IMG/VR virus record: IMGVR_UViG_3300012979_000038
Coordinates: 1 to 64,000 of that record
DNA from: a virus
DNA: 64,000 bases
Reading direction: 5' to 3' (one strand)
This document shows, piece after piece, positions 4,923 through 61,765 of the stretch. Each line of letters begins with the position of its first letter. Positions within the stretch are counted from its first letter, which is position 1. The notes beneath the pieces are model-generated. The model was not told the origin of the DNA, ran no database searches, and saw only the letters and a program-made list of their open reading frames with translations. Position numbers and translations under genes: made by a program.

Positions 4923-4935
4923 AATTCTTGTTTTT

Positions 4936-5259
4936 CTATTTTATATTTTTTGTAAAAAATGGATTCTGTAACATTGTCTTAAGAAGATTATTTGTTTCTT
5001 CGCAAATTTCAATAAAATGTGATACATCATAAGCATCCAAAGTAAACCATTCGTTTAACTCATGTTTACTTGAAAATTTAAAATGCAACATTTTTTCTAA
5101 TCTAAAAGGATAATCACATTGATAAGTATTAACAACATGAATTTCGGTAGAATTACCGGTCTGAAGTTTTTTAAAACGATTACTATTTAAATCTCTTGTG
5201 ACACCAATCTTGAAAGTGTCATTTGCTGGATCACAAACCAAATAGATATAACCTCCCAT
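4936..5259 (-). CDS. T5orf172 / GIY-YIG-like domain protein
   Basis: N-terminus GGYIYLVCDPANDTFKIGVTRDLNSNRFKKLQTG matches the GxIYlv...KIGxT...R..L signature of the T5orf172/GIY-YIG superfamily. Confidence 0.5.
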   Translation of the reverse strand: MGGYIYLVCDPANDTFKIGVTRDLNSNRFKKLQTGNSTEIHVVNTYQCDYPFRLEKMLHFKFSSKHELNEWFTLDAYDVSHFIEICEETNNLLKTMLQNPFFTKNIK

Positions 5260-14987: not shown

Positions 14988-14996
14988 TTGAAACAT

Positions 14997-15278
14997 ATGA
15001 AAAACTTACAAGAATATATAACGGAATCATCTGCAAAAGTTGTTAGGAATCATAAGCTTAACAAACTTTTGAAACAGAATGGATTGGAAAAGATTCAACT
15101 ATGTAAAGGAAATGGTTATTTCTGGTTGACTAGCGAAGATGATGAAACATATCGGATTCTATCATCTTTAGAAACAACATCCATTTATACTAATTCATTT
15201 TCTGACCAGACACCAGAAGCATGGGTTGAAGAAATTAAAGAACTTTTAAAGGACACAGAACTTATACAAAACAAATAA
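14997..15278 (+). CDS. small protein with CTS-like N-terminus (MKNLQEYITES)
   Basis: Internal Met chosen (ORF opens at 14988 as MKHMKNL...). The leader resembles the MK[ST]L.xYI.E family described in findings. Confidence 0.4.
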   Translation: MKNLQEYITESSAKVVRNHKLNKLLKQNGLEKIQLCKGNGYFWLTSEDDETYRILSSLETTSIYTNSFSDQTPEAWVEEIKELLKDTELIQNK

Positions 15279-22200: not shown

Positions 22201-25200
22201 TACGAAATCAACAGGAACATTTTCACAAGTAATATTTTCTAATGTTAAGTTGCAAGATTTGTGTGGAACATTTGCTTCTGTAAGAGCTGCGTCCCAATCA
22301 TTAACAAACTTAACAATATCAATACCAGTTACATTTCTTAGAACTACATTCTTAAGAGCTGCATCTGGAGTATATTTAAATACTTCAGCAGTTTGTTCAG
22401 CTGCAGGAGTAAATGTAACGTTTCTTAATTCGATATCAGAAATACGGTTTACTGGTAATGAAACTTCGTTTAAGATAACACCTTCAGCTGGTTTAAATGT
22501 TGTAATTGAAGAACCAATTGCACGATAAACGTGTAAGCTTGCTAAGTTGTTAATCTTGAAATCACCTAAGTGATATTCTTCAGAATCATTAAAACAGTTA
22601 CGTATATCAACTTCCTCAAGAGTATTAAGGTCGTTCATATTACTTAATAATGCTACGTTACATCTTGTTGGACCAAGAATTTCTAATGATAAACCATCTG
22701 GAGCGTTTACTGCTTGTGGAGCATCGTAATATTCTCCAGCATTAATTGTTATTTCATTACCACCAACTGTCATAACTATTGCATTTTCAGTTTTGTTAGT
22801 ATAACGATAAACGTCTGAAGTTCTGAATTCGTCAGAGATACCGAATAACAATTTTGTCATCATTGTACCTTTTGATTTAATCCAGTTATTAGCAATATTA
22901 CCAATAAATTCTAGTTTACCGAATGAGTGACCAGCTTCAACAGCTTTTCTAAAGTCAAGAACTTTAATCTTATCAACACCCATTATAGAGAATGGAGAAG
23001 AAATACCGTTCCATGTTGAGTTTGTTGTCCATTCCCATGTACTATCTATTTCCATTTCTTTAGCCCAATGTTCAGGTACTGCACCATCTAAGTCGGAGTT
23101 AGTTAAACCGAATACATTTTGACGAGCTGCTGTAATAGAGAATATGTCTGTATAGATAGAAGCATTTTCATTCTTAATACCCATATAGAACTTAATAGTA
23201 TTTTGAGAATATTCTCCAGAGAACCATTTAGAATCGTATAAGTTGAAACGGTTAGTTACCCACCATGTACGGTGTTGTGTTCTAGAACCATGGATAAAGT
23301 TCAAATAACCTGCACCAGATGGTAAATATTTAATTGTTTCTTGAACGTTATACATTCTTTCTGGCCACCAAGCTGCTTGTTTGTTGTTATACATATCTAA
23401 CAATGCTTTTGAAGATAGTACACCAGAGTTATACATCGCTGTATCAAGTTGTTTTACTTTATTCATAAAGTCAGCGTCATTTTCTAACAAGTTCCAAAGA
23501 ACTGAAGTAGGACCTGCGTAAGCGAATTGACCTTTTGAATAATCGTAAGTATTTCTATCTACTGTCCAGTGGAATACGATGTGACCATCATTACGAACAC
23601 CAAGAGTTGTATCGTTATCATAGTTGATATAATAGTAGTGTAGTCCGTCTTCTGTTGTTAACATTGAGTTCTTAACAACTTGGTCAATACCAGCGAATCT
23701 CATCAAGTAGATATAGTATGCTGCCAATTTCCAAACATCGAAGTAATCATATTTCTTTTCAGAGAAATATTCCATATATGTTCTACCGGCGAAAGATTTA
23801 CCATCTTTATCAACTTCATAAGCATCTCTATCAACAGAACCAACGTATTGTTTTTGTTGACCGTAGTTATCAGTATAATTATACTTGTTACCACCAGCTG
23901 CTTCTAAGTAAACAGATACATAATAATCTTCTTCGAATGGTGAACCAGCGATTTTATCACCATAATTAACTTGTTCGCCATCACCTACTCTTTCATCATC
24001 GAATGCAATATCTTCTACGAATGTACCGTAAGTTGCATCGAATGAAGCTACTCTTCCTTTATAAATGTGGTTTTCGATTGTTTTTGTTGAAACTGTCTTA
24101 GATACATTTTCATAATCGATATTTGTTAACATTTTATAAACTGGAGCATTGGCTCTCAAGTCATCTGAATCTTTATATTCTAAGTTATTATAAACTTTAT
24201 TACCAGCTTCTTCTAATTGTCTTTGATCTAGTACGAATACTAAAAGACCATCTTCAACAGCTTTGTCATATTCAGCTTCTGGAATTTCTACGTATGGAGA
24301 AAGTGTATAACCATCCAATCCATCAACTAAATAATCAACGCCTGGTTTACAGAAGTGAACGAATCTCCACATTGACTCAATATTATGAGTGTGTGATACA
24401 AGATATTCATCACCATCAGGACCTTCAATTTCAACGTCTGGCCAACGTGGTTCATAATCTGACATTACGAAACGTGTACCCATGAAAGTATTTTCTTCTT
24501 CACCAGGTGCAGCATGAACGTCAGTAATTAAGTTAACACCTTGTCCAAATAATGAACCGTTGTTAGATGCTTCCCAACATTCTACCTTTTCTGCGCTAAA
24601 TATTTTATTACCATTTTCATCATAAATATCTTCGAAACCGAATAGAGGAGTAGAACCTTTATCTGTCATGATGTTGAATTGACCTACGAATTCAGCATTA
24701 CCATATTTGCGGAAGCCGTTTTCATCATATTGAACATTACCAGCTTCGTCTCTCACTAATGGACAAGCAAAAATAACGATTGGTTTACCATCACAAGATG
24801 TACGAATATCGATACCATCTGCAAGTTCACCCATACGTTGTTGAGCTAATGTTCTACATAGATAACCAGTTTTACCTGAATCATCAGTACCTTGAACCAT
24901 CTTCATTGCATTACCCCATAATCTACCAGCACCAGCATTATGCGTCATAGAAGATTCAGCGAAGTCAGTTTTTAATGTCCATCTGTTTGTCCAACCTGAT
25001 CCTTCATATTGTTTCCAACAAGCTTGATCTACATAATATGTTTTATCTTCCTTAAGTGCATTTTTACCTTTTAGTTTCTTAAATTCTGGAACATCATATT
25101 CAACACCAGTTACAGGGTTTTGAATTTTTGAATATCCATCAATTGAATAAAGAGTAGCACCTGAATAACGGAATTGTTTTACTGTTAACCAATCACGTAA

Positions 25201-34695: not shown

Positions 34696-35901
34696 ATGGC
34701 AAGAAAAAGTGTAACTTTAAGTAAAACATCAGAAAAGAAACTAGTATCGTTTTTAAAACACAATCAAGAATATATAACTGAAGAATTTGAAACAAAATTT
34801 AGGGAACAAGTTATATATGACATTAAAAATATTAGAGAATGCTCCGAAAAGAAAATCGTTGATTTTTATTGTGAAGTAGCAAAATCAATGTTAGAATCTG
34901 GAGAAGTCAATTTCAATGACGAATTCTTTAATACTCTCAAAAATAAAGTTAGATCTAAATTATCTCAAGTTTATACATCAGGTAAAACATTCGATAATAA
35001 TATCGACATTTATTTTAATGAGGTAAAATCTATCTATATTAAAAATCCTCAAAACGAATCAGATGGACTTGAGTTTATTCCAGAAAACAGAGACATTTTC
35101 ATTAAAAACAATTTGAAGTTAGTTATTGAATGTGCTAAACGTTATCGTGATCTCGGTTTACCATTCGAAGATTTAATTCAAGTTGGAAATTATGGTTTAT
35201 TAATTGCATTTGATAAATTTGATACTGATAGAGCAAATTTACGTATTGCGATTATGAACGATATTAAAAATTCAGCTACAGAAACATTTACTAAATTAGA
35301 AGCTGAAGAAATCATTCGCAAAAATTTCACTTATTCTAAAAACTTAGAACAAACAATAAATTCTATTCCAGAAAATGGATTTGAATCAAAGGAAAAATTT
35401 ATTGAGTGGTCTAAGGTAAATATCAAAACAGCAGTATTCGCTTCAGTGGCTTTCCAATGGATTAGAGCAAATATCATTATTGAGCTCAATAAATATGGAA
35501 AGATCTTAAAAATTCCAAATTCAGTTAAAAATGATTTAGGTGCAGCGTCAATCATAAGATTGGATTCGTTGAACCCATATACTGATGATTGTTATCATGA
35601 TAATCAAATTTCAGATTACATTAATAATGAATTTAAAACTGAATATGAATTATATGATGAACAAGAACAAGAAGAATTATACAAAGAAACTGTAGAAGAT
35701 CTTTTATCTATTTTAAACAATCAAGAACGTCGTATTATTAAAAAGAAGTTTGGAATAGATTATCCGTATGAAATGAGTCCTAATGATATTGCAGAGAACG
35801 AAGGATTACCTGTTAATAAAGTAAAACAGATAATTAATTCATCAATGAAAAAATTATCTAACGAAGCTAATAGAAGCGGAAAGAAATCTATCTTTTCGTA
35901 A
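34696..35901 (+). CDS. sigma-70 family RNA polymerase sigma factor
   Basis: Region 2.2 DLIQVGNYGLLIAFDKFD, region 2.4 FQWIRANII, region 4 HTH ERRIIKKKFGIDYPYEMSPNDIAENEGLPVNKVKQI. Confidence 0.8.
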   Translation: MARKSVTLSKTSEKKLVSFLKHNQEYITEEFETKFREQVIYDIKNIRECSEKKIVDFYCEVAKSMLESGEVNFNDEFFNTLKNKVRSKLSQVYTSGKTFDNNIDIYFNEVKSIYIKNPQNESDGLEFIPENRDIFIKNNLKLVIECAKRYRDLGLPFEDLIQVGNYGLLIAFDKFDTDRANLRIAIMNDIKNSATETFTKLEAEEIIRKNFTYSKNLEQTINSIPENGFESKEKFIEWSKVNIKTAVFASVAFQWIRANIIIELNKYGKILKIPNSVKNDLGAASIIRLDSLNPYTDDCYHDNQISDYINNEFKTEYELYDEQEQEELYKETVEDLLSILNNQERRIIKKKFGIDYPYEMSPNDIAENEGLPVNKVKQIINSSMKKLSNEANRSGKKSIFS

Positions 35902-35948: not shown

Positions 35949-37751
35949 ATGGTTTTTGGAAATTTTAATGATGTGATGGAAGGTGAAAAACAATTATATG
36001 AAGCTTTGCAAGATAATTTATTCACCAATTCAATAAGAAATTCACAGATATCCGTAAATAATAAGAAACAATCTGCTTGGTCAAAACTATTAAACCTTTT
36101 ATCTCAATACGGTATGAATTATGATGACCAAGTATTAAGAAATATGTCTGCTATTCCAGCGGATAAAGCTCTTCAAAATAAAGAGGATGTAATGTTACAA
36201 AACTCTATGTATGGAGCTTTAAATAACTGGAAGGTTAAGGCGGAAGAAGACAAGGCATTTTCAGAAAAGACGTTGGAACAACGTCGTCAAATGTTAAGAA
36301 AGCTTTCACAAGCAACAGAACTTGAAGATATTCTTGACGTTATGGCAAATGAATGTATTGTTTATGATGATGACGAATCATATATTGGACAACCATTTAT
36401 TGATACTGGTTTAACACAAGATTTAACAGAAAAATCTACAGAAGAAATTCGTAACTGTGTTAACATGGCATTCTATAAATTGTATATGTTATTAGGATGG
36501 AAAACTTCTGCATGGGACGATTTTAAACGATTCCTAATCGATGGTGTATTAGCATATGAAATTGTTTATGATGATTTGGAACATCCAAAAACAATCATCG
36601 GTATTATTGATGTTGACCCAGTAACATTAACAAAAGAAGTTAAAGACGGTACAACAACATGGGTACAATATAAAGGTGTACAAGGACGTGAAAGAGTTTT
36701 ATTGGATGCTCAAATAATTTATATTAAATATGAAGATTCTGGTGTATCTGAAAGACAATCGTATCTTGAACGTTTAATTCGTCCATTTAATTTGTACCGT
36801 ATTGTAGAACAAGCACAAATTATTTGGACAGTAACTCAAGCATCATTTAAAACTTTGTTCACAATACCTATTAGTGGTATGAATAAAGCTAAGGGTATGC
36901 AAACGCTTTCTCAAGCAATGAATAGATATCGTGAAGATATTTCATTCAATGGAGAAACTGGTGAACTTCAAATTAATGGTAAAACTAATCTTCCATTTAA
37001 CAAAGAATATTGGATGCCAGAAAATGAAAATGGTAAACCAGAAATCGAAACACTTGTAGATAATGGTCCACAACTTAATGATTCTGACCAAATCAAGTAT
37101 TTTGAGGCAAAACTTTATAAAATGTCAAAAATTCCAAGTTCACGTTTTGATAAAGAAGCACAAACAACTTGGTTTGGATCAGATGCAACTCAACAAATGA
37201 GAGATGAAATTAACTTTGGACGTTTTGTATCTCGTTTAAGAAATACTTTCGTACAAATTATTCTTAAACCTTTACGTATTCAAGTTGCATTAACAGTTCC
37301 AGATATTAAGAATGATAAACGTATTCTTGATGCTATTTCATTTAGATTCAATACTTACAATCAGTTTACTGAAATGATGGATATTGAAATAATGACAAAA
37401 CGAGTTGAATTTATTGGAACAATGAAAGATTCATTAACTGTAATTGATTCTGATGGTGAAGAAAAACCATTCTTCTCACCAAAATTCTTAATTATTAAGT
37501 ATTTGAAGATGTCAGAAGCTGATTTAGAATTGAACGAAAAATATAAACTAGAAGAAAAAATTGCTTCCCAAAAGAGTGGAGATTCTGAATCAGAAGGAGA
37601 TGAAGGAGGAGACGATACTGATTTAATGGGAGGAGATGAAGGAGGAGATGAAGGAGGTTCTCCTGAAAAAGAAACTGATGGTGGAGGTGATTTAGATTCA
37701 GAAATGTTAGGAGACGTTCAACCAGAATCTACAGAAACTACAGAAGCTTAA
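35949..37751 (+). CDS. portal protein (T4 gp20-like)
   Basis: Segment YRIVEQAQIIWTVT...NKEYWMPENENGKPEIETLVDNGPQLND parallels T4 gp20 YRITRAPDRRVWYVDT...[24 protein letters not shown]. Acidic Gly/Asp/Glu-rich C-terminal tail as in gp20. Confidence 0.65.
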   Translation: MVFGNFNDVMEGEKQLYEALQDNLFTNSIRNSQISVNNKKQSAWSKLLNLLSQYGMNYDDQVLRNMSAIPADKALQNKEDVMLQNSMYGALNNWKVKAEEDKAFSEKTLEQRRQMLRKLSQATELEDILDVMANECIVYDDDESYIGQPFIDTGLTQDLTEKSTEEIRNCVNMAFYKLYMLLGWKTSAWDDFKRFLIDGVLAYEIVYDDLEHPKTIIGIIDVDPVTLTKEVKDGTTTWVQYKGVQGRERVLLDAQIIYIKYEDSGVSERQSYLERLIRPFNLYRIVEQAQIIWTVTQASFKTLFTIPISGMNKAKGMQTLSQAMNRYREDISFNGETGELQINGKTNLPFNKEYWMPENENGKPEIETLVDNGPQLNDSDQIKYFEAKLYKMSKIPSSRFDKEAQTTWFGSDATQQMRDEINFGRFVSRLRNTFVQIILKPLRIQVALTVPDIKNDKRILDAISFRFNTYNQFTEMMDIEIMTKRVEFIGTMKDSLTVIDSDGEEKPFFSPKFLIIKYLKMSEADLELNEKYKLEEKIASQKSGDSESEGDEGGDDTDLMGGDEGGDEGGSPEKETDGGGDLDSEMLGDVQPESTETTEA

Positions 37752-37757
37752 TAAAAT

Positions 37758-38339
37758 ATGAAAACACTTAAAGATTACATATTAGAGAAAAGTTGGGATA
37801 AATATCAACAAGGTGTTTATCCCGACGATTCTATTAAAAGCGCTATTTATGATTATGTAAGTGGTATGACAAGCGGAGTAAATTATGACCTCCGAAAAGG
37901 AAATACCAGAGGTTCTAAAAAAGTTATTGATAAATTGGATTCTGCTTTTAAAGATGCAAACTATGCAGATGGTAAAATATTAAATGTTTGGAGAACTGTT
38001 GACTGGGATTATATGAAAAATATATACGGTGCAACTAGAGAAAACATAAAAGATTTTGTTGGAAAAACTTTTGAGAATAAAGGTTATATGTCAACAACGA
38101 AGAAGTTTGGTTCACCTTGGGGTAAAAGTTGGATGAAAGATGATTTGGTTATGCATATTACTTCAAAAGATCCTTATCCAGTTTTAGATATAAATAGAAT
38201 TTTTAAATCATCTGAAATAGATTGTGCTGACCAAGAAGAGTATTTATTACCAAGAAGTACTAAATTGGTTTTGAAAAAAATATCTTATCATAGAAATAAA
38301 CATAAAACCATCGAATTAGAGATGGAAATTGAATCATGA
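37758..38339 (+). CDS. mono-ADP-ribosyltransferase (C3/Alt-like) with CTS-like N-terminus
   Basis: R-S-E triad: YDLRKG (Arg), GYMSTTK (STS motif), QEEYLLPRST (Q-x-E followed by LLPR as in C3 exoenzyme QLEMLLPR). N-terminus MKTLKDYILEK. Confidence 0.75.
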   Translation: MKTLKDYILEKSWDKYQQGVYPDDSIKSAIYDYVSGMTSGVNYDLRKGNTRGSKKVIDKLDSAFKDANYADGKILNVWRTVDWDYMKNIYGATRENIKDFVGKTFENKGYMSTTKKFGSPWGKSWMKDDLVMHITSKDPYPVLDINRIFKSSEIDCADQEEYLLPRSTKLVLKKISYHRNKHKTIELEMEIES

Positions 38340-39016
38340 AATTTAGTGAAACAGAATTATTACCAGGTGTTGTTATAGATGTAGATGATCCAAAAATGTT
38401 AGGAAGAGTTAAGGCAACTGTTCCAACTTTATTTGATGAAAGCGTAATGAGTAAAGATGGAATGCCTTGGATTTATCCATTAACTATGATAGGTTATCAG
38501 GGATTTTCTAAATTACAAAAAGGTTCAAAAATCTGGGTGTTTAAACAAAAAGGTAAAAATCGTGAATTTTGGTATATTCCAATGTTTGAACTTAATAAAA
38601 ACACCAGAGATGTTGTTGAAAATTATAAAGAGCCAGAAGTTTTAATATCAAGATCTGCTGGTTCTGAATCAGTATATATTTATTATAATGACGTTGATGG
38701 AATTCAATTAAAGATTGGTTCAGAAAATTATGTAAATATTAAACCAGATTCATCAATAACATTAAAATCTGGTAATGCTAGAGTAGACTTAAAAGAAGGA
38801 AAAATTTATATAGGTGATGGAAACGCAATAGAACCATCAATACTTGGAAATAAACTTTTTGATGCTTTATCAAATTTATCTAAAAATCTTGGCGCCATTG
38901 CTGGTATGTGTTCAAATCCATTTACATTACCATTAGCTACAACTTTCCAACAAGCATCAACTATGTTAAGTCAAGATATACAAAATATACGCTGCGACAA
39001 CACATTCATTAATTAA
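38336..39016 (+). CDS. gp5 N-terminal-like OB-fold (Phage_base_V/gpV-like) baseplate hub/spike domain protein
   Basis: LPGVVIDVDDPKMLGRVKATVP versus T4 gp5 FVGVVEDVMDPKFMGRVRVRV; DGMPWIYPL versus DLPWAHVL. Confidence 0.6.
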   Translation: MKFSETELLPGVVIDVDDPKMLGRVKATVPTLFDESVMSKDGMPWIYPLTMIGYQGFSKLQKGSKIWVFKQKGKNREFWYIPMFELNKNTRDVVENYKEPEVLISRSAGSESVYIYYNDVDGIQLKIGSENYVNIKPDSSITLKSGNARVDLKEGKIYIGDGNAIEPSILGNKLFDALSNLSKNLGAIAGMCSNPFTLPLATTFQQASTMLSQDIQNIRCDNTFIN

Positions 39017-49174: not shown

Positions 49175-49396
49175 TTAACAATCTGGTTCTGTATAAACTT
49201 TGTTATCTTCAATTTTGACAACCTTAAAAATTGTACCACCGGCATACCAGCCTTTGCCAACTTGTGGTTTCTTTTTCCAATTCTTTGCCCATTCTGTGAA
49301 GTTATCATCAAGCTTATTACTTACATAAACTTCCCATGGTTCTCCGTTTTCAGCTTTAACAGCTTCACTAATTATATAGTTTTGTAATGTTTTCAT
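49175..49396 (-). CDS. small protein with CTS-like N-terminus (MKTLQNYIISE)
   Basis: 73-aa ORF. Its leader matches the MK[ST]L.x[YH]I.E family. Confidence 0.4.
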   Translation of the reverse strand: MKTLQNYIISEAVKAENGEPWEVYVSNKLDDNFTEWAKNWKKKPQVGKGWYAGGTIFKVVKIEDNKVYTEPDC

Positions 49397-51640: not shown

Positions 51641-52783
51641 TTAAAATTGTTCACAAAGTTTAAATGCTGATTCAATAGTATCTGATATTGAATAATTTCT
51701 GTATTCTGCTCGTTTTCCGCATAATAACATATTCGGATAATCTTTCTTTAATAACTCAAGATATCTTCCATAAAGACCGATTGAACGAGTATCTCTAATT
51801 AAATCAATTGGTTCTGCGCCAATCTCCCATTCTTTATAATATTTATAAATTGCTATTGTGTGTTCATCAAATTCTTTAGATTTTCCAATTTTCCAAGGTG
51901 TTAACCACTTAAACTCTGTTATTTTATACCATTTTACTTTTTTATCCAAATAATTAACAACTGGGCATCCTAATAAATTTGTTGTGTTTGCTGATTCATC
52001 TCTAATTACATAATCTGCAGCAGTCCATTCTAACTTACCAATGCAATAATTAAATAGTCTATCAATTTCACCAGTATAAATAACTCTATCTGCTAAAGAT
52101 GAATAAGATTTTGGTTTTTCTAAAAAATTTGTATCAAGTATTATTGATATATCATCTCCAATGATATTTTCTATAAGTTTAGTATATCCATTTTCTGGAA
52201 TTCCTTGATAGATCTCTTTGTAAAATCTGGCATCAGAAAAAAGTAATGTGTTATAAATTCGTTGATGAACATTAGCTGGTAAATTTTCGGGATCTTTGTT
52301 ATAAATCTTAGTATAATATTTTCTATAAATAGTTTCGTAAATTGTTTCACCGTATTTATAAATCAAATATTCCTTAAGATTATTAAACTCTTCATTTTCC
52401 ATAAATTTATCATCACGTAATCTTCTTTCAAATTGATATGGATAAGTTTCACCATAAATATCATAACACATTTGTAAATCATCAGAAAAAAGATAACGGT
52501 TTTTGTCGTCAACTAAATATTCATTATAAACTGTTGGTACGATATTGTCATATTTCTTAAGAAAATTCCAAACATCTTTATTATTTGTATGAATAATGTG
52601 CGTATCAAATAGATGAATTTGAATATCATATTTAAAATCATTCGCACAATTTCCTCCAACAAATGGACGTTCTTCTATTATAACAACAGAATATCCTTTA
52701 TCTTTAAGCAGACGAGCACAAGTGGCACCAGCAAAGCCGGCGCCAACTATCATAAAATCATATTTGTTTTTATTAGCGTGCAT
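51641..52783 (-). CDS. glf: UDP-galactopyranose mutase-like flavoenzyme
   Basis: N-terminal FAD Rossmann [42 protein letters not shown] and ~380-aa length are typical of Glf. Confidence 0.65.
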
Positions 52784-53115: not shown

Positions 53116-53160
53116 ACTTAAACTTTATTTTTATTTAATAGAAATTAAAATTTAACTAAT

Positions 53161-54114
53161 ATGAAGTCATTAAATCAATACATAAACGAGAAACTTGTTT
53201 TGAAGTCTAATAGCAAAATTAGAAAACATCAAGAATATAATTATCATCCTAAAACAAATGAGGAATTAAGAACGTTAGTTAATGAACTCATTGAAGAACG
53301 TGGTATTGAAGCTGATTTAAACGACATTGATACATCAAAAATTGATGATATGTCACATGTATTTGAAAACAAAAAATTTGATGGAGATATTTCAGACTGG
53401 GACGTTTCTAATGTAAGATATATGGGACATATGTTTTTATATAATTTTGATTTTACCGGAAAAAACACAGATTTTAGTAACTGGGATGTATCAAACGTTT
53501 ATCATGCCGATGGAATGTTTGCTGGATGTCAAAAGTTTGAAGGTAAAGGATTGGAAAACTGGAAATTGAAATCGTTAGGAGTAGCAAAAGAAATGTTCGC
53601 CAATTGTCATGAGTTAAATTTCGACATAACAAATTGGGATATTTCTAATATAGAATACTTTGAATCGATGTTTATAAATTGTAAAAAATTCAATCAAGAT
53701 TTATCTAACTGGAAATTCAATCATAATGTTAGAAATTTAACTGGTTTATTTATGGGGTGTGAAAGTTTCGAAGGAAAGGGATTGGAAAATTGGGATGTTA
53801 GTAAAATAACAAATATGAGAAGTATGTTTGCTGGCTGTGCAAAATTTAATGCCGATATAACTAAATGGGATGTTTATTCAGTTATTGGCATGTGTAATAT
53901 GTTTCATGGATGTAAAGAATTTAATCAGGATTTATCTAATTGGAATGTAAAAAATCTTATGGATATTACTGAAATGTTTAGGGATTCTGGTATGACATAT
54001 AATTTAGCAAAATGGGCACCTAAGCTTCACAATAAATGTAAAATAAAAAATGCATTAACTAATACACCGGTAACTAAATCAAAACGTCAACCTTTCTGGT
54101 ACTTTAGAAAATAA
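53161..54114 (+). CDS. DUF285-repeat protein, paralog 1, with CTS-like N-terminus
   Basis: Tandem ~22-aa repeats F.GDIS.WDVSNV..M..MF typical of DUF285 (Mycoplasma-type repeat). N-terminus MKSLNQYINEKLVLKSNSKIRK shared with 4 paralogs. Confidence 0.7.
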   Translation: MKSLNQYINEKLVLKSNSKIRKHQEYNYHPKTNEELRTLVNELIEERGIEADLNDIDTSKIDDMSHVFENKKFDGDISDWDVSNVRYMGHMFLYNFDFTGKNTDFSNWDVSNVYHADGMFAGCQKFEGKGLENWKLKSLGVAKEMFANCHELNFDITNWDISNIEYFESMFINCKKFNQDLSNWKFNHNVRNLTGLFMGCESFEGKGLENWDVSKITNMRSMFAGCAKFNADITKWDVYSVIGMCNMFHGCKEFNQDLSNWNVKNLMDITEMFRDSGMTYNLAKWAPKLHNKCKIKNALTNTPVTKSKRQPFWYFRK

Positions 54115-54119
54115 TATAA

Positions 54120-54150
54120 AAGGGGAACATTTAGTTCCCCTTATTTTTTT
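54120..54150. terminator. bidirectional terminator
   Basis: AAGGGGAACATTTAGTTCCCCTT followed by a T-run. Confidence 0.6.
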
Positions 54151-54520
54151 CATATTCTCTTTTTGAAATGATTGTAAATGTCTCTTGAAGTTCATTAATA
54201 CTTCCTTCCCAAATATTCCTTAATTTATCTTTAGAGATTTCATAAATCAAAAATACTTGACCCGCCTTAACTTTGATTTCTATGCATTTGATATATGAAT
54301 AATCCAAAAACTGTTCGGAAGGTGTATATGAAACAGCTACCAAATATTTAAGATACTTTCCTTCATAAACATTCTTAAGAAATGCTTCAATGCTAAGATT
54401 TAACATTTTATACTCTTGCATCATTTCATTAAGTTGTCTTTTATATGAATCTCTTTCGTTTTCTCGTAGAGCAATTTTAGATTCTAATAATGATACTTTC
54501 TTTTTGTTAAATAAATCCAT
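54131..54520 (-). CDS. coiled-coil hypothetical protein
   Basis: 129-aa ORF. Confidence 0.4.
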   Translation of the reverse strand: MDLFNKKKVSLLESKIALRENERDSYKRQLNEMMQEYKMLNLSIEAFLKNVYEGKYLKYLVAVSYTPSEQFLDYSYIKCIEIKVKAGQVFLIYEISKDKLRNIWEGSINELQETFTIISKREYEKNKGN

Positions 54521-54524
54521 ATTC

Positions 54525-55076
54525 TTAGTTTATTTTGTTTATTTGGTCTACCATCAAATTAAGATATTGCTTCAAATTTTTTGTGAAATTTTCAATATCG
54601 TACATTTTATCATGGTCAAAAATTCGCAAATATGCATAAGTTGAAAATTTTTCAAAATGATAATCATCATGAATTTTAACAAGTTTTATGCAATCATTAG
54701 TAAGACTGCAACAATCAATCGTTAATGATTTTTCGAATGGATTAAACAATACAGTCAACTCTGTTGATGCAATTACGCCTTCATATTCACGGTGAAGTTT
54801 TATATTCGTATAATGATGATGATTTAATTTATCGGTTTTACACATTATATAGTTATTAAGATTGTTACCAAGCGTTATAAATGGTACTTTACCAGTAAGA
54901 CCATGTTCATCCATAAAATCGCAAGTTCCAAGAATATCTTTTGCTTGTTCCAAATGTTTCAAACAATTGTCTAACATCTGACACAAATTATCCTTGTATG
55001 CCTTTTGTGTTTGATTACGTTCTTCTTCTCGTTTTTTTGCAACTTCGAGAATTCCTAATTCATTGATAATTGTCAT
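54525..55076 (-). CDS. hypothetical protein
   Basis: 183-aa ORF. Confidence 0.4.
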   Translation of the reverse strand: MTIINELGILEVAKKREEERNQTQKAYKDNLCQMLDNCLKHLEQAKDILGTCDFMDEHGLTGKVPFITLGNNLNNYIMCKTDKLNHHHYTNIKLHREYEGVIASTELTVLFNPFEKSLTIDCCSLTNDCIKLVKIHDDYHFEKFSTYAYLRIFDHDKMYDIENFTKNLKQYLNLMVDQINKIN

Positions 55077-55081
55077 AATAT

Positions 55082-55303
55082 TTAAGCTTCGTTAATACGG
55101 ATAAGTGATTTTTCCAAAAATTCCAAAACTTTATCGTCACGATAGAAACAATCTACTCCATCGATAAACTGTACCTGACGAGCTACTCCATAGTGCTCCT
55201 CAATATAGTTAAAAACGAATTGTCCAAAACGAATATAATCTGGACGTGATTGTGAGGCAGTTACAACCTCTTGTGTCAATTCTTCAATTTTCATATTATT
55301 CAT
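55082..55303 (-). CDS. hypothetical protein
   Basis: 73-aa ORF. Confidence 0.35.
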   Translation of the reverse strand: MNNMKIEELTQEVVTASQSRPDYIRFGQFVFNYIEEHYGVARQVQFIDGVDCFYRDDKVLEFLEKSLIRINEA

Positions 55304-55311
55304 TTTTTGTT

Positions 55312-56538
55312 TTAAGCGATTTTTTGATAAGTTGTTTTAGGTGCTTTTGAAAGACGACCTTTTGTGTAAATAATCTCTTTACGATTTGATACGCAACCTA
55401 CATTTACTATGAATGAATATCCAATCTCATCGTTAACATAGAACTTCTTGATGGTGTCGCTCTTAACCATGAAAAGTAAACCAGATTTTGTATCGCGGAT
55501 GTAATATTCTGTATATTGAGCAGGTGCCCAATATGGAAAATAACCATCTTCGTCATAATTATCAACTAATTGAGTATACTCAATTTTACCAGTTACATTG
55601 TACTTAACACCGTATTCAATACCGTTTGCTTGTACAGCTGGAGTAAAAGTATCTACTTTCATTGAATCGTCGTACATCTTAAGTGCGAAGAATACCTTAG
55701 AAACTTCATAAAGGTTAATGTACTCAGCTTCGAATGCTTGTTTGATTTCTTTTACAAAATCTGTTTTTGCTTCCAAGTTCTTTACGAAATCAAATATGGT
55801 TTTGTTGTATTGCTCATTAACTGGGTATTCGGAGATATTGCGGAGCATTACTGCAATATGGTCAGTACTTCCAGGAACTTTCTCTGAACCATAAGGAGTT
55901 TGTTCGTAACATACCTTAACCCAATTTTGTTGTGTTTTACGATACTCTGCAACAACTGGAATGATTGCATTGATGTTAACTGCTTGTGAAAAGATGTTAA
56001 TTGATTTACCTCCACACCATACTCCAAGATTTTCCGAGTAACATCCGTCATATACTTTAATGATTTTATCTACTTTGTAAATAAAAGATGAAAGATACTT
56101 ACCATCATTCAACATTTTGTTAACACATGCAGTACCGACTTGCATCCATTGATTTGTATTTGGATTATAAACTACATGTGATTCTGTTCTTGCTATATGT
56201 GATTTTCCACAATAGTCACATTTTGTGTAATTGAGACCAAACTCTTTTGGCATATTTTTGAAGTACTCATCTGAAACTTTGGTGACGATTCCATCACGGT
56301 GATAAATACTTGCTACCAAAACCCACTCGTTTGCTACTACATAATCAATATTAACTTCAATAAGATCTAATGTATAACGATTACAATAAGACCCTTCATA
56401 TTCAACGATATATCTCGTGCAATCTACCGGTTTAGGTTGACTGAACGTAATAGTTGGTTTAACGGTGAAGTGTTTAACCATTGCATTAAGTTTGTTTTCA
56501 ACTTGCTTACGATTTGCTGGTAGAATGTAGAAGTTCAT
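55312..56538 (-). CDS. hypothetical protein with CxxC pair
   Basis: 408-aa ORF with CDYCGKSH; preceded by a class A motif. Confidence 0.45.
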   Translation of the reverse strand: MNFYILPANRKQVENKLNAMVKHFTVKPTITFSQPKPVDCTRYIVEYEGSYCNRYTLDLIEVNIDYVVANEWVLVASIYHRDGIVTKVSDEYFKNMPKEFGLNYTKCDYCGKSHIARTESHVVYNPNTNQWMQVGTACVNKMLNDGKYLSSFIYKVDKIIKVYDGCYSENLGVWCGGKSINIFSQAVNINAIIPVVAEYRKTQQNWVKVCYEQTPYGSEKVPGSTDHIAVMLRNISEYPVNEQYNKTIFDFVKNLEAKTDFVKEIKQAFEAEYINLYEVSKVFFALKMYDDSMKVDTFTPAVQANGIEYGVKYNVTGKIEYTQLVDNYDEDGYFPYWAPAQYTEYYIRDTKSGLLFMVKSDTIKKFYVNDEIGYSFIVNVGCVSNRKEIIYTKGRLSKAPKTTYQKIA

Positions 56539-56549
56539 ATTGAAATATT

Positions 56550-56594
56550 TTTTAATTACAAATACAATATAGTAAAAAATATGAAAATTTCAAA
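56550..56594 (-). promoter_or_regulatory. class A promoter-like motif (minus sense), near-identical to consensus
   Basis: Minus-sense TTTGAAATTTTCATATTTTTTACTATATTGTATTTGTAATTAAAAAA, 12 nt before the ATG at 56538. Confidence 0.55.
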
Positions 56595-56604
56595 ATTTTA
56601 AAAC

Positions 56605-56626
56605 TTTATTTTTATATATAAATATG
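56605..56626 (+). promoter_or_regulatory. class B-like variant (TTATTTTTATATATAAATATG) upstream of the DUF285 operon
   Basis: Contains TATAAATA; differs from class B by a TA insertion. 14 nt before the ATG at 56640. Confidence 0.35.
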
Positions 56627-56639
56627 AATATACATTTTT

Positions 56640-57632
56640 ATGAAAAGTTTAACCCAACATATAACAGAGAAACTTGTATTAACTAATAAATCAAAAATAC
56701 GAGGAAAACATACATATAATTATTTTCCAAAAGATTTGAATGAATTACGTGACATCATGTATAAATTAATTGATGAACGAGGAAATAAAGCAAACTTGAA
56801 CGATATTGATGTTTCTAATATAACAACATTAGAAGGATTATTTAGAGAGTTTGATGAGTTTAACGGTGATATTTCGCAATGGGACGTTAGTAATGTTTTG
56901 ATTATGACAGATACATTTGCTGTATCTGAATTTACTGGTGATATTTCTCAGTGGGATGTTTCTAGTGTTACTAATATGCAACGCATGTTTCATGATTCAG
57001 AATTTGATGGAGATATTTCAGATTGGAACGTTCGTAATGTAGAGAATATGATTGATATGTTTAATGGCAGCAAATTTACTGGTGATTTAAATAAATGGGA
57101 TGTTAGTAAAGTAAAAGATATGTCAGGTATGTTTGGTGAATCTATATTTGAAGGTAATATTTCTGATTGGAACACGAAAGCAGTTGAGCGTATGGATTGC
57201 ATGTTTGAAGATAATTTGGTATGGAATGGCGATATATCTAAATGGGATGTTTCTAATGTTATTTCAATGATACGTATGTTTCATTATTCAGGATTTACCG
57301 GTAAACATGGTTCATTAAAAAATTGGAATGTTGAAAAGGTAATAGATGCACAATTAATGTTTGCCGAAACTGAGTTTAACGGTGATCTATCTGGTTGGAA
57401 ACTTAAAAGCGCAAAAACTATTAGATCCATGTTTTTACGTTCATCTTTTAATAATGACAGTATTAAAGATTGGAATAAATATTTAAACAGTGTAAGAAAT
57501 ATGAATTTCATGTTTTCTGAAACCAAATTTTCACAAGATTTATCTCATTGGACTATTGATAAACGATGCGACTTTGTTGGAATGTTTGATGATTGTCCTA
57601 TAAAAGAAGAATATAAACCAAAATTTAAATAA
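56640..57632 (+). CDS. DUF285-repeat protein, paralog 2
   Basis: N-terminus MKSLTQHITEKLVLTNKSKIRG; repeats GDISQWDVSNV; C-terminus CPIKEEYKPKFK. Confidence 0.7.
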   Translation: MKSLTQHITEKLVLTNKSKIRGKHTYNYFPKDLNELRDIMYKLIDERGNKANLNDIDVSNITTLEGLFREFDEFNGDISQWDVSNVLIMTDTFAVSEFTGDISQWDVSSVTNMQRMFHDSEFDGDISDWNVRNVENMIDMFNGSKFTGDLNKWDVSKVKDMSGMFGESIFEGNISDWNTKAVERMDCMFEDNLVWNGDISKWDVSNVISMIRMFHYSGFTGKHGSLKNWNVEKVIDAQLMFAETEFNGDLSGWKLKSAKTIRSMFLRSSFNNDSIKDWNKYLNSVRNMNFMFSETKFSQDLSHWTIDKRCDFVGMFDDCPIKEEYKPKFK

Positions 57633-57633
57633 T

Positions 57634-58332
57634 ATGAAAAGTCTAACACAACATATAACAGAAAAACTTGTACTAAACTCCAATTCAAAGATTAGAAAAA
57701 ACAAAGAATATAATTATCATCCTAAAACAAGAGCTGAACTAAAAAAACTAATAGAACAACTTATTAAAGAACGTGGTTATGAAGCAGATTTAAACGATAT
57801 CGATACATCTTTAATAACAGATATGTCAAGTTTATTTTTTGGATCGTATTTTAATGGAAATATATCTGAATGGGATGTAAGTAATGTTGATAATATGGAT
57901 GGAATGTTCAATGGATGTAAATTTACAGGCGAAAATGGAGATATATCTGGATGGAATGTAAATAATGTAGAAGATATGAGTTTTATGTTTAGTGATTCTG
58001 AATTTAACGGTGATATATCTGATTGGAATGTATGTAAAGTACAGAACATGACATGTATGTTTTTAAACTCAAAATTTAATGGAGATTTATCTAAATGGAA
58101 TGTTGGCAATGTAAAATATATGACAAGTATGTTTAAAGAATCTGAATTTACTGGAGAAAATGGAGATATATCTAATTGGGATTTACACAGTATATCTATG
58201 ATTGATGAGATTTTTAAACAAACAAAATTCAATAAAGATATATCTAAATGGAATATTAATAAAAATTGCTCAACAGTAGATATGTTTAAGGAATGTCCTA
58301 TAAAAGAAGAATATAAACCTAAGCTTAAATGA
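57634..58332 (+). CDS. DUF285-repeat protein, paralog 3
   Basis: N-terminus MKSLTQHITEKLVLNSNSKIRK; C-terminus CPIKEEYKPKLK. Confidence 0.7.
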   Translation: MKSLTQHITEKLVLNSNSKIRKNKEYNYHPKTRAELKKLIEQLIKERGYEADLNDIDTSLITDMSSLFFGSYFNGNISEWDVSNVDNMDGMFNGCKFTGENGDISGWNVNNVEDMSFMFSDSEFNGDISDWNVCKVQNMTCMFLNSKFNGDLSKWNVGNVKYMTSMFKESEFTGENGDISNWDLHSISMIDEIFKQTKFNKDISKWNINKNCSTVDMFKECPIKEEYKPKLK

Positions 58333-58334
58333 TT

Positions 58335-59156
58335 ATGAAAACATTAAACCAATATATAGAAGAGAAACTTGTTTTGAATTCTAATTCAAAGATTAGGAAA
58401 CAACATTATAATTATCATCCCAAAACAAGAGATGAGCTAAAAGAAATAGTTAAAAAACTTATTGAAGAAAGAGGTAATGAAGCTAACTTAAACGATATTA
58501 ACACATCTTCAATAACAGATATGTCAAATATGTTTGAAAATATAAAATTTGTAGGTGATATTTCAGGCTGGGATGTTAGCAACGTTACTAATATGAGTTG
58601 GATGTTTTATAAATCTGAATTCAATGGAGATATATCTAAATGGGATGTTAGTAATATTGAAGTCATGTATTGTATGTTTGCACGTTCAAAGTTTAACGGC
58701 GACATATCTGATTGGGATGTAAGAAAAGTTAAAGATGTATCAGGGATGTTTGAAGAATCTAAATTTAATATGGATATATCTAAATGGGATGTTAGAAACG
58801 TAGAAAACATGTCACATATGTTTCATAAATCTGAATTTAATGGAGATATATCGCAATGGGATGTTAGTAGTGTTACTAAAATGACTGCTATGTTTAATAC
58901 GTCTTCTTTTAACGGAGATATTTCTAAATGGAAAGTTGACTCAGTTAAAGATATGGGATATATGTTTTATGAATCTAAATTCAATGGAGATATATCCAAA
59001 TGGAATGTGGATAAAGTAGAAGATATGAGGGCAATGTTTAAAAAATCAAAATTTAATAAAGATATATCTGGTTGGAATATTTTGATGATGTGTGATATTG
59101 CGAATATGTTTAAACAATGTCCTATAAAAGAAGAATATAAACCTAAGTTTAAATAA
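58335..59156 (+). CDS. DUF285-repeat protein, paralog 4
   Basis: MKTLNQYIEEKLVLNSNSKIRK taken as the start; the ORF opens 2 codons earlier with ATGA overlap. C-terminus CPIKEEYKPKFK. Confidence 0.7.
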   Translation: MKTLNQYIEEKLVLNSNSKIRKQHYNYHPKTRDELKEIVKKLIEERGNEANLNDINTSSITDMSNMFENIKFVGDISGWDVSNVTNMSWMFYKSEFNGDISKWDVSNIEVMYCMFARSKFNGDISDWDVRKVKDVSGMFEESKFNMDISKWDVRNVENMSHMFHKSEFNGDISQWDVSSVTKMTAMFNTSSFNGDISKWKVDSVKDMGYMFYESKFNGDISKWNVDKVEDMRAMFKKSKFNKDISGWNILMMCDIANMFKQCPIKEEYKPKFK

Positions 59157-59157
59157 T

Positions 59158-60201
59158 ATGAAAACATTAAAGCAATATATAGTAGAGAAACTCGTTTTAA
59201 CTAACAATACAAAGATTAGAAAACGAGAATATAATTATCATCCAGAAACGAAAGATGAGTTAAAAAAATTAGTTAAAAAACTCATAGAAGAACGAGGAGA
59301 TAATGCAGATTTAAATGATATTGACGTTTCAGAAATAACTGATATGTCTAGCTTATTTAGTTTTTCTCATTTTAACGGAGATATATCTGGTTGGGACGTT
59401 AGTAATGTTAAAGATATGTCCCATATGTTTTCAAGTAGTTATAAGTTTAACGGTGATATATCAAATTGGGATGTTGGTAATGTAACTAATATGAGTTGGA
59501 TGTTTAATTTTTCTAAATTTGATGGTGATATATCTAGATGGGATGTTAGTAATGTTACTAACATGGACGGTATGTTTAATGATTCACATTTTATGGGAGA
59601 TATATCTAAATGGGACACAAGTAAATGCAAATCTATGATTATTATGTTTGAATCTTCAAGTTTCGATGGAGATATTTCTAAGTGGAATGTAAGTTCTGTT
59701 GAAAATATGGGCTCTATGTTTAAGAAGTCACAATTCAATGGAGACATATCTGAATGGGATGTAAGTTCAGTCAAAAATATGGGTTGGATGTTTGAAGAAT
59801 CAAAATTTAATGGTGATTTATCTAAATGGAATGTGAGTTCTGTAGAAAAAATGACAAATATGTTCCATAGTTCTAAATTCAATGGAGATATATCAAAATG
59901 GAATGTCGGTAAAGTTACTGACATGTCCGGTATGTTTACTAAAACTAATTTTAATGGAGATATAAGTAAATGGGATGTTAGTAATGTTACTGACATGCTA
60001 TGTATGTTTGGTTGGTCTAAATTCAATGGAGATATAAGTAAATGGAATGTTAGAAATGTTGAAAATATGGAATCAATGTTTAACAAAACTGAATTCAACA
60101 GAGATATATCTAAATGGGACGTAACATCTGTTAAAACATTTAATAATATATTCTATGAATGTCCAATAAAAGAAGAATATAAACCAAAGTTTAAAAAATA
60201 A
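59158..60201 (+). CDS. DUF285-repeat protein, paralog 5 (longest repeat array)
   Basis: N-terminus MKTLKQYIVEKLVLTNNTKIRK; about 12 repeats; C-terminus CPIKEEYKPKFKK. Confidence 0.7.
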   Translation: MKTLKQYIVEKLVLTNNTKIRKREYNYHPETKDELKKLVKKLIEERGDNADLNDIDVSEITDMSSLFSFSHFNGDISGWDVSNVKDMSHMFSSSYKFNGDISNWDVGNVTNMSWMFNFSKFDGDISRWDVSNVTNMDGMFNDSHFMGDISKWDTSKCKSMIIMFESSSFDGDISKWNVSSVENMGSMFKKSQFNGDISEWDVSSVKNMGWMFEESKFNGDLSKWNVSSVEKMTNMFHSSKFNGDISKWNVGKVTDMSGMFTKTNFNGDISKWDVSNVTDMLCMFGWSKFNGDISKWNVRNVENMESMFNKTEFNRDISKWDVTSVKTFNNIFYECPIKEEYKPKFKK

Positions 60202-60257: not shown

Positions 60258-61355
60258 TTAGAATGGAAGATCTGTATCATCGTCATCTGCACCAAAACTA
60301 TCGAAAGTTGCAGTTGAACCACCATGAACTTGAGTAGGTTCTGGAGCAGTAGTTTGCTCTGTCAAAGCCGCTGGTGCAGAATTAACTGTTGCAGGATTAT
60401 TACCGTTAAGAACTACTTCAATCCAACGATTTACACGTTCTTTCAATTCGTCGTTCCACTCCTTGTAACCAAGGTGCTCAGTAAGATTTGGACATACAGT
60501 CTTAATGTTATCCAAAACTCGTTTGTAGATTTTCTTAAGAGCTGCTGTGTTTGGATCTGCATTTACTTCTTCCAATAATGCTGTACGAGTTTCAGCATCC
60601 TTAGATTTCCAAACCTTATTCATCTTTGTTACATAAGTATCAAGTACTTCAGTTTCGTCATCATTCAACATTGATGAACCATCTGGGTTTACACAAGATA
60701 CTACTTCATCGCTAAACTCACCAACATACTTGGTTTCACGAGTATAACGTTCTTCACCTGGTTTACCTGGACCTGGTTGAACCTCAAGTTCAATTGCTCT
60801 ACCGAACAAGAAATCCATAACTGGAATTGATGCTTTCTTTGCATCAGATGGATTCATCTTTGCATTGATAATATCCCAAATTGACTTAGGAAGCTTCCAG
60901 AAAAGATACTTACCTACCAAATCAGGTTTGTTCTCATCTTCCAATACTTGGATAGTTACATAACGAGTAAATCGCTTGTCGAACATTTGGTTACCACCCT
61001 TGTCTGCACCTGCTTGTTGTTTCCACAATGCTGAACCCTCATCTGCATAACGGCATTTCTTCCATGCCTTAAAGATAGGACAATTGGTGTCATTTACAGT
61101 AAGTGAAGATACTGCTTGGAACCAACCCTTCTCATCTTGCATAGAATAAGCTTGTTGCTCGATAACTGAGTTCTTTAGATCAAATGGATTGTAAATTACT
61201 TTAATGGTAGCACGATATACACCATCTTCTGCAACTGAATCTGCAGGACGTGGACGATAGATTAGTGGGTCCGCGTTAGAAGTTTTTTGTTCTGTTTGGT
61301 TAAAAACTGTTAATTGTGAGGGATCAAAGCCCAATACGTCATTTTCTGTCATCAT
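60258..61355 (-). CDS. single-stranded DNA-binding protein (T4 gp32-like)
   Basis: KYLFWKLPKSIWDIINAKM versus T4 gp32 KVFKWLMPKPLWDKINAM. Acidic C-terminal tail FGADDDDTDLPF as in gp32. Confidence 0.65.
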   Translation of the reverse strand: MMTENDVLGFDPSQLTVFNQTEQKTSNADPLIYRPRPADSVAEDGVYRATIKVIYNPFDLKNSVIEQQAYSMQDEKGWFQAVSSLTVNDTNCPIFKAWKKCRYADEGSALWKQQAGADKGGNQMFDKRFTRYVTIQVLEDENKPDLVGKYLFWKLPKSIWDIINAKMNPSDAKKASIPVMDFLFGRAIELEVQPGPGKPGEERYTRETKYVGEFSDEVVSCVNPDGSSMLNDDETEVLDTYVTKMNKVWKSKDAETRTALLEEVNADPNTAALKKIYKRVLDNIKTVCPNLTEHLGYKEWNDELKERVNRWIEVVLNGNNPATVNSAPAALTEQTTAPEPTQVHGGSTATFDSFGADDDDTDLPF

Positions 61356-61471: not shown

Positions 61472-61765
61472 TTATGAAAAATATTTTGCTAAAAATTCAA
61501 AATAGTCTTTTAACATTTTTGTTCGTTTACTTTTCTTAGTCTTTGCCAAATTTTGCATTTTATCGTTTTCGCATCTTTCCAAAAGTTGTTTACCGATATT
61601 GTCCCAGCAACCCATAAAAATTGCTTGTAATTCTACAAATATATCCTCAACTTCCTTTTCAGTTTTATAATCAAGATTTTCTGCATTTTCTTTACACCAA
61701 TTCTTAACTAATTCTGAAACTGAGTTTTTAGATTCTAACAATATTTTATCCTTAAGTGTTTTCAT
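61472..61765 (-). CDS. small protein, N-terminus MKTLKDKILLES (CTS-like)
   Basis: 97-aa ORF. Confidence 0.4.
   Translation of the reverse strand: MKTLKDKILLESKNSVSELVKNWCKENAENLDYKTEKEVEDIFVELQAIFMGCWDNIGKQLLERCENDKMQNLAKTKKSKRTKMLKDYFEFLAKYFS

Follow-up and report, generated by a model that had tools for sequence, protein, structure and literature searches.

Why do nine proteins encoded on one stretch of phage DNA begin with nearly the same ten residues? The stretch, hereafter the window, comprises 64,000 nucleotides (nt) inside an 80,883-bp metagenomic contig (ENA ERZ27246411, k141_1621455); it has a G+C content of ~30% and holds ~81 non-overlapping open reading frames (ORFs). The phage is a distant T4-like jumbo phage, its T4 affinity being indicated by a T4-type portal protein (PF07230) encoded in the window. 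A first-pass annotation had likened the shared N-terminal leader to the capsid targeting sequence (CTS) of phage T4, MKTYQEFIAE (PMC8442874). We find it likely that the ten-residue leader is this lineage's counterpart of the T4 CTS, and we suggest by analogy with T4 that the nine proteins are probably head-internal and injected.

Nine ORFs begin with a common leader

The window carries the pattern M-K-[STN]-L-x-x-[YHK]-I-x(1-2)-E, with the consensus M-K-[STN]-L-x-x-[YH]-I-x-E, at the start of nine ORFs. All nine exist and start with the residues quoted in the first-pass annotation, and Pfam confirms its assignment of five DUF285 paralogs (PF03382 in each) and one ADP-ribosyltransferase (PF03496). 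The positions it gave are starts for the plus-strand ORFs; for the two minus-strand ORFs they are the low coordinate, not the start. The nine ORFs (lengths in amino acids, aa) are:

53161..54114, plus strand: DUF285 (BspA-type leucine-rich repeat, LRR) paralog 1, 317 aa; leader MKSLNQYINE, then a second module, KLVLKSNSKIRK
56640..57632, plus strand: DUF285 paralog 2, 330 aa; leader MKSLTQHITE followed by KLVLTNKSKIRG; opens a four-gene tandem array
57634..58332, plus strand: DUF285 paralog 3, 232 aa; leader MKSLTQHITE followed by KLVLNSNSKIRK
58335..59156, plus strand: DUF285 paralog 4, 273 aa; leader MKTLNQYIEE followed by KLVLNSNSKIRK
59158..60201, plus strand: DUF285 paralog 5, 347 aa; leader MKTLKQYIVE followed by KLVLTNNTKIRK
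37758..38339, plus strand: C3-exoenzyme-like ADP-ribosyltransferase (PF03496), 193 aa; leader MKTLKDYILE
14997..15278, plus strand: small ORF, 93 aa; leader MKNLQEYITE
49175..49396 (start 49396), minus strand: small ORF, 73 aa; leader MKTLQNYIISE, with Glu at residue 11
61472..61765 (start 61765), minus strand: small ORF, 97 aa; leader MKTLKDKILLE, with Lys7 and Glu11

As the five DUF285 proteins are paralogs, the nine ORFs amount to five independent cargo families. The span 53161-60201, with which the leader had been associated, holds only DUF285 genes and four unrelated minus-strand genes (54131-56538). For paralog 4, an in-frame ATG two codons upstream (58329) is a possible start, giving MIMKTL..., and the ORF at 14997-15278 opens at a TTG at 14988. 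Pfam and PHROGs assign no function to the three small ORFs, and the PHROG matches of 14997-15278 are limited to families of unknown function. Leu4 together with Tyr or His at position 7, the positions tested for targeting in T4, is found in eight of the nine leaders, the ninth having Lys7. An (I/L)-x-E tripeptide was expected in each leader and is present at the sequence level in all nine; it ends at residue 10 in seven, as I8-x-E10, and at residue 11 in the other two.

The leader is far beyond chance

Searching the six-frame translation of the window with K[STN]Lxx[YHK]Ix{1,2}E, an initial Met not being required, returned nine matches, each directly behind an initiator Met. Nucleotide shuffles (n=200) gave an expectation of 0.075 matches with a maximum of 1, and shuffling residues within the 81 called proteins (n=500) an expectation of 0.048 with a maximum of 2, so that nine matches stand against 0.05-0.08 expected. 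While 22 of the 81 proteins start with MK, 72 lack the full motif, so that MK alone reflects A/T bias and the full motif does not. A position matrix was trained on relatives only, with the window left out; seven of the nine leaders take the top seven scores in the window (19.4-30.2, the highest being that of 14997-15278). The remaining two score 15.7 and 15.0, on a par with an internal Met at 15.1 and ahead of a 21-aa ORF at 13.4, and all nine are within the ten best window scores. The leader of 61472-61765, at 15.7, is the weakest of the nine matches.

As a negative control we used 2.19 Mb from 200 further T4-like loci, each taken around a prohead protease gene and 120 of them picked by their A/T-rich codon pattern; the strict leader pattern had no match in them. 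The window and its portal-related loci (0.92 Mb) contain 64 leader ORFs, with a slightly relaxed pattern in the relatives. The leader is real.

Correspondence to the T4 capsid targeting sequence

The CTS of T-even internal proteins has been known since 1996 (Mullaney & Black 1996, summarised in PMC9026906 and PMC8442874), and reviews already propose that varied proteins are loaded through it in T4-like phages (PMC9026906). In amber-suppression mutagenesis of the T4 CTS, residues 4 and 7 determined targeting and residues 8 and 10 processing; Asp at position 10 stopped cleavage but not targeting (PMC9026906). At these positions the window leader agrees with the T4 CTS, having hydrophobic or aromatic residues at 4 and 7, Ile8 and Glu10. 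Run as a positive control on 150 kb of the T4 genome, the same pattern matched ipII, ipIII and gene 61.1 at their ORF starts, with one further match out of frame. The earlier view that the leader mirrors a CTS on IPI, IPII, IPIII and Alt holds for IPII and IPIII and in part for IPI, whose start, MKTFKEFTST, no more than resembles the CTS; it fails for Alt, which begins MELITELFDE, does not carry the CTS and has its own 7-residue propeptide (PMC9026906).

T4 gene 61.1 (NC_000866, L381 18966-19130, minus strand) encodes a 54-aa hypothetical protein beginning MKTFKEFIKE; it is a good match to the CTS pattern, and its record carries no internal-protein annotation.

The likeness to IPII and IPIII (and IPI) lies in a ~10-residue leader of the form M-K-T/S-hydrophobic-x-x-aromatic-I-x-E with (I/L)-x-E at residues 8-10, in the tagging of unrelated mature proteins whose genes sit in variable loci, in the detection of both sets by one pattern, and in a T4-type portal; for the T4-type protease and capsid proteins the likeness holds at the level of the clade, by way of a relative's contig. 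The two systems differ in number (3-4 tagged genes in the whole of T4, nine in the 64 kb of the window and 12-14 within 9 kb of a relative); in position 4, which is Leu or Ile in this lineage and Tyr in T4; and in a second conserved module, EKLxLNKD, that follows many of the leaders here. The phage also stands very far from T4, its portal having 23% identity to gp20 over 447 residues (expectation value (E) 1e-27), and its lineage is known here from genes alone. Unlike those of T4, the cargos are larger (up to 347 aa), are not basic and include enzymes and LRR arrays; the predicted mature proteins span 62-337 aa, with isoelectric points of 5.0-7.6 and 8.9 for the ADP-ribosyltransferase. A small, highly basic mature protein is typical of IPI-III, not of Alt, and does not define CTS use.

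Giant phages of the SPN3US/phiKZ type offer a second comparison, as jumbo phages with many head-internal proteins, cleavage after Glu and propeptides for which prohead targeting has been proposed (PMC5694885). Their protease is gp21-related, but the propeptides are mostly at least 100 residues long and carry an A/S/G-x-E motif (PMC5694885), in contrast to the short shared leader found here, which has 10 residues and is of the T4 type.

The leader is a module shared by unrelated cargos

IMG/VR contains 48 loci with a portal 40-72% identical to that of the window, many on contigs of 140-410 kb. With the slightly relaxed pattern, these gave 55 further leader ORFs, all matches being at ORF starts; together with the nine of the window, the resulting 64 form 30 cargo families that have no detectable similarity past residue 12. 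A looser pattern, with protease-related loci added, brought the set to 160 ORFs in 89 families. It matches 0.8% of control ORFs and two false ORFs in the window, and given its false-positive rate (~10-15%) we treat these numbers as an upper bound. Pfam domains among the cargos are AAA_33 P-loop kinase, NUDIX, HD_4, HAD and DUF6267, most cargos being unmatched. DUF6267 has the leader in environmental contigs and lacks it in Pelagibacter phage HTVC008M, so the tag can be present or absent on one and the same cargo.

The codons for K2, L4, Y7 and E10 vary synonymously and roughly follow genome codon usage, which indicates selection on the peptide and not on the mRNA; the exception is Ile8, where ATA makes up 49% against a background of 20%. 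At codon 2, AAA is favoured. In AlphaFold2 models the leader is either disordered or a separate helix, and we therefore regard it, as modelled, as a modular, flexible appendage outside the folded cargo domain. In DUF285 paralog 3, residues 1-22 have a predicted local distance difference test score (pLDDT) below 50, and most of residues 25-232 exceed 90 in a confident solenoid. In the ADP-ribosyltransferase (pLDDT 88.8) the leader is a separate short helix of residues 4-10.

A second conserved module, E-K-[LF]-x-[LIV]-x-[KSN]-[DN]-x-K, follows the leader beyond the presumed cut site. It reads EKLVLNSNSKIRK in the DUF285 proteins of the window and EKLHLNKD or EKLKINSKSK elsewhere:

53191-53226, 56670-56705, 57664-57699, 58365-58400 and 59188-59223, plus strand: second module of the five DUF285 paralogs

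It also occurs in L384 (4681-7370) and in L006/L021, and in all on 43 of the 160 looser-pattern ORFs, on unrelated cargos from several phages. Cleavage may occur elsewhere than after E10, or the signal may be of a different length.

Among phage-collection records the nearest portals are 30-41% identical to that of the window, and belong to LR756500.1 (uncultured, 462 kb), Sphingomonas phage PAU, Tenacibaculum phages PTm1 and PTm5, Chryseobacterium phage MA9V-2 and the Prevotella Lak phages. From the nearest cultured relatives alone, the host is judged to be probably a member of the Bacteroidota. No strict leader match occurs in the 17.7 kb of PTm1 examined, and the HTVC008M region had partial look-alikes only. 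A marine leader family (MKSLKTYITES..., ~207 aa) is homologous over residues 1-151 to gp202 of Pseudomonas phage PA5oct, which lies within a T4-like structural module and is annotated in GenBank as a structural protein detected by electrospray ionization tandem mass spectrometry (ESI-MS/MS); as the N-terminus of gp202 is degenerate, we take this as weak support.

Two further IMG/VR contigs, L153 (1-13076; 3300021431_002079) and L199 (1-13271; 3300031994_002036), carry 10 and 8 leader genes per ~13 kb at a G+C content of 0.26, their cargos including a HAD-type hydrolase, a P-loop protein and GDIDI-motif nucleotidyltransferase-like proteins that Pfam does not recognise. From these arrays, the leader is more widespread in IMG/VR than the immediate clade of the window. 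Two paralogs with a GDIDIA motif stand beside a leader array at L384 1-2931 / L196 7659-9598, one with an N-terminal extension of repeated leader-like segments (...IVNYIES...ISEYIKES...).

Leader genes lie beside portal and protease genes

The ADP-ribosyltransferase gene occupies a variable cassette slot, which was compared across relatives (L002-L032 and L045):

35949..37751, plus strand: T4-type portal protein (gp20 homolog), PF07230, E 1e-74; left edge of the slot
37752-38335: portal-hub variable cassette slot
38336..39016, plus strand: gp5-like baseplate hub protein with an oligonucleotide/oligosaccharide-binding (OB) fold; right edge of the slot

In relatives this slot holds 0-3 genes, the cargos differ between phages, and the hub protein that comes after it has the conserved N-terminus M.L.D..(I/L)PG.VIDV.DPK.(I/L)GRVK. 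Slot inserts begin with the leader or a close variant, with the exception of one insert type.

The flanks of the window on the 81-kb contig (L130, L132) hold no additional leader genes and no head genes. A hidden Markov model (HMM) built from 83 protease ORFs had no match in the window or these flanks, and an alignment of the PTm1, L047 and L049 proteases, used to search IMG/VR, matched T4-like contigs of the marine type only. Scanning IMG/VR for the leader coding pattern led by chance to L196, which has a run of leader genes and a gp21-like protease fragment at its edge, and this fragment, used as a query, led to eight loci. One of them, L390, is on the same contig (2799112330_000002) as L015, whose portal is 67% identical to the window portal. 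The gp21-like protease expected by the first-pass annotation is thus absent from the 81-kb contig and found as a Peptidase_S77 on that of a relative: in a 565-aa protein this domain (PF03420; 28% identical to T4 gp21; 44.5 bits, cutoff 27) is joined to a long scaffold-like tail. Next come the gene for a Gp23-type major capsid protein (PF07068, 102.9 bits) and then those for tail sheath and tube, and the capsid N-terminal sequence ...AAIHEIHE|SMLGV fits an (I/L)-x-E maturation site. Directly upstream of the protease, on the same strand, are 12 leader-pattern genes and 2 close variants, with starts that include MKSINQYISE, MKSIREYINE, MKDIKQYITE and MKSLIQYISE.

The layout of L390 recurs in L384 and L385. 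In L384 and L389, leader-tagged DUF285 homologs, 44-61% identical to those of the window, closely precede the protease; such homologs are also present on the protease-bearing loci L386 and L388. Leader genes cluster beside portal and protease genes and, on the domain and sequence matches given here, the clade encodes T4-type portal, protease and capsid proteins.

Two other candidates were set aside. A divergent protease match, L273, led to a separate low-G+C group that has no genes in common with the window. An ORF of 116-118 aa in L012 (~4880-5231, minus strand), L018, L019 and L005 resembles the middle of gp21-type proteases (...IELLDTPSGKIYQEIL..., HMM E ~0.01) and is possibly a truncated paralog, of which the window has no homolog.

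Packaging signal or another kind of leader?

By analogy with T4, an N-terminal amphipathic helix with hydrophobic or aromatic residues at positions 4, 7 and 8 would dock the new protein on the scaffolding core during prohead assembly; a gp21-type (Peptidase_S77) protease would then cut after the Glu of (I/L)-x-E at residues 8-10 or 9-11, and the freed cargo would stay in the head with the DNA and enter the host cell at infection. Core binding, cleavage, head retention, injection and a role of the cargos in the host are all steps that we infer only from T4.

Several observations weigh against this scheme. In tblastn searches with the PTm1 protease, scaffold and capsid proteins, the window and its flanks yield no counterpart, the link to a protease and capsid running through a relative, and the phage is known from metagenomes alone. 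The ninth leader (start 61765) has Lys at position 7, and PA5oct gp202, beginning MKSFRDYYDAS, has neither I8 nor E10. The module past E10 is unexplained by a simple cut at this residue, the mature proteins are not basic as T4 internal proteins are, and the kinase, NUDIX and HD hydrolase cargos could work in the cytoplasm unpackaged.

The last three of these points would also suit an N-terminal docking tag for a chaperone, host factor or compartment that is neither cleaved nor packaged: relatives' cargos are often ordinary cytoplasmic enzymes (AAA_33 kinase, NUDIX, HD, HAD), the mature proteins lack the basic character, and a second conserved module lies beyond the supposed cut site. We nevertheless consider such a tag unlikely, because the leader matches the T4 CTS exactly at the residues mapped for targeting and gp21 processing (PMC9026906), and because Glu10 is near-invariant, a residue that a pure docking helix does not need. 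The leader genes moreover stand beside portal, prohead protease and capsid genes, and the same pattern in T4 marks known head-internal proteins. Less probable still is that the leader is a historical relic of duplication and cassette recombination, at most a recombination substrate and not a protein signal. Five of the nine ORFs are indeed tandem paralogs with a common upstream 14-mer and C-terminal tail, and the arrangement of leader genes, partly as tandem arrays and partly within a variable slot, is in line with cassette exchange. The leader is, however, found on at least 30 cargo families with no detectable similarity beyond it and is kept in ADP-ribosyltransferase homologs down to 48% identity; its conserved residues use varying synonymous codons. 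A relic free of selection would decay, and a stretch of 30 nt that varies synonymously offers poor homology for recombination.

An origin in A/T-rich codon bias, or in an mRNA translation-initiation element (an A-rich unstructured 5' coding region), would be in line with the ~30% G+C of the window, the frequent MK start, the favoured AAA at codon 2 and the over-used ATA at Ile8. Composition-preserving shuffles nevertheless yield so few matches, and the motif is absent from so many window proteins and from all control loci, with synonymous codons varying at its conserved residues, that this explanation is effectively excluded and the leader is not a generic consequence of codon bias. A counterpart of the T4 CTS is the reading that we prefer.

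The ADP-ribosyltransferase and DUF285 cargos

The only Pfam match of the ADP-ribosyltransferase is PF03496 (ADPrib_exo_Tox; E 1.4e-12, residues 23-188), and the best PDB match of its model is a clostridial C3 exoenzyme (Foldseek E 3e-10, template modelling (TM) score 0.65). Invariant residues are Arg79, Ser112-Thr113 and Gln159-x-Glu161. A recognisable leader is present in 16 of 17 homologs (48-90% identical), P0016 being the one without it; K2 is invariant among these homologs and E10 is found in at least 90%.

Alt of T4 is an ADP-ribosyltransferase that is packaged in the head and injected. The window protein resembles it in its enzyme class, in coming from a T4-like phage and in a propeptide-like N-terminus that ends in (I/L)-x-E, and both have an R-S-E type fold, PF03496 having been run on the window protein only. 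Alt is, however, 682 aa long with its catalytic region near the C-terminus, whereas the window protein consists of the 193-aa domain alone and carries a Q-x-E motif. A local match of 75 residues between the two is weak (pairwise E 0.006). Given the lengths (193 against ~680 aa), this weak match and a fold nearest to C3 exoenzymes, we rejected membership of the Alt family. Of the earlier arguments for a T4-related genome, the portal (PF07230), the gp5-type hub and the gp32-like protein stand, and "Alt-like" was an overstatement for the ADP-ribosyltransferase. Polymorphic toxins of the MuF/SPP1-gp7 type likewise place a toxin-type domain (ADP-ribosyltransferases included) just after the portal gene, with delivery through the capsid proposed (PMC11699363), but in these a large MuF domain is fused to the toxin and the window protein has only the 10-residue leader. 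As Pfam gives PF03496 only, and just the portal-adjacent position is in common, membership of this class was rejected as well.

The five DUF285 paralogs consist of tandem PF03382 repeats (E 2.7e-46 to 1.6e-164), are 46-62% identical to each other and have a conserved C-terminal tail, CPIKEEYKPKF. An exact 14-mer, AACTTTATTTTTAT, at 53121-53134 and 56602-56615, 26-40 nt upstream of DUF285 starts, is probably a duplicated promoter region. We rejected it as a promoter shared by the leader genes: it is exact only before two DUF285 transcription units, and with 2 mismatches it has 16 matches against 9.1 expected, which is barely above chance. It is a reasonable guess, drawn from the analogy to IPI, IPIII and Alt, that these cargos serve as effectors or against host defences.

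Significance

In T4, the GmrSD restriction enzyme is inhibited by IPI, and infection of E. coli strain ECOR17 requires IPIII (PMC3012670, PMC9391042). Injected proteins act ahead of phage gene expression and would therefore be prime candidates for proteins directed against host defences. To our knowledge, such proteins can be found beyond a few model phages only by virion proteomics of cultured phages.

We tentatively propose, with somewhat more doubt than conviction, that in uncultured jumbo T4-like phages the leader labels injected proteins which form a large and exchangeable repertoire, with dozens of cargo families per clade, a CTS almost unchanged since the split from T4, cassettes beside portal and protease genes, and EKLxLNKD as a further sorting or ejection signal. 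If so, the injected set would include ADP-ribosyltransferases, NUDIX and HD hydrolases, kinases, candidate nucleotidyltransferases and DUF285 arrays, and first-wave effectors and anti-defence proteins could be listed across metagenomes by sequence alone. Provided that the tag identifies injected proteins, the tagged enzymes and repeat proteins would make a target list for screens of anti-defence and host-takeover functions. A near-identical tag at a portal identity of 23% would imply that its docking site on the scaffolding core is very conserved, and suggests that other phage chassis could make use of the T4 CTS as a packaging tool.

In the literature searched, which left subscription journals mostly uncovered so that an earlier description is possible, the leader is undescribed outside T-even phages. 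The same search found no description of a near-unchanged CTS this far from T4, of arrays of 9-14 tagged genes, of this range of enzyme and repeat-protein cargos, of cassette slots at portal and protease genes, or of the second module EKLxLNKD.

Other features of the window

Some further genes of the window are:

34696-35901, plus strand: sigma factor (Sigma70 regions 2 and 4), directly upstream of the portal gene
60258-61355: gp32-like protein

At ~residues 19-30, within its N-terminal extension, the sigma factor has an internal stretch resembling the leader, FLKHNQEYITEE. A single ORF of 2855 aa (19237-27804, minus strand) adjoins ORFs of 804 and 1032 aa, and the 1032-aa ORF has Big_2 Ig-like domains and phage tail-fiber-like repeats. 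A T5orf172/MUG113-domain gene lies at 4936-5259 (minus strand), and a UDP-galactopyranose mutase-like gene (precomputed Pfam GLF and NAD_binding_8) at 51641-52783 (minus strand).

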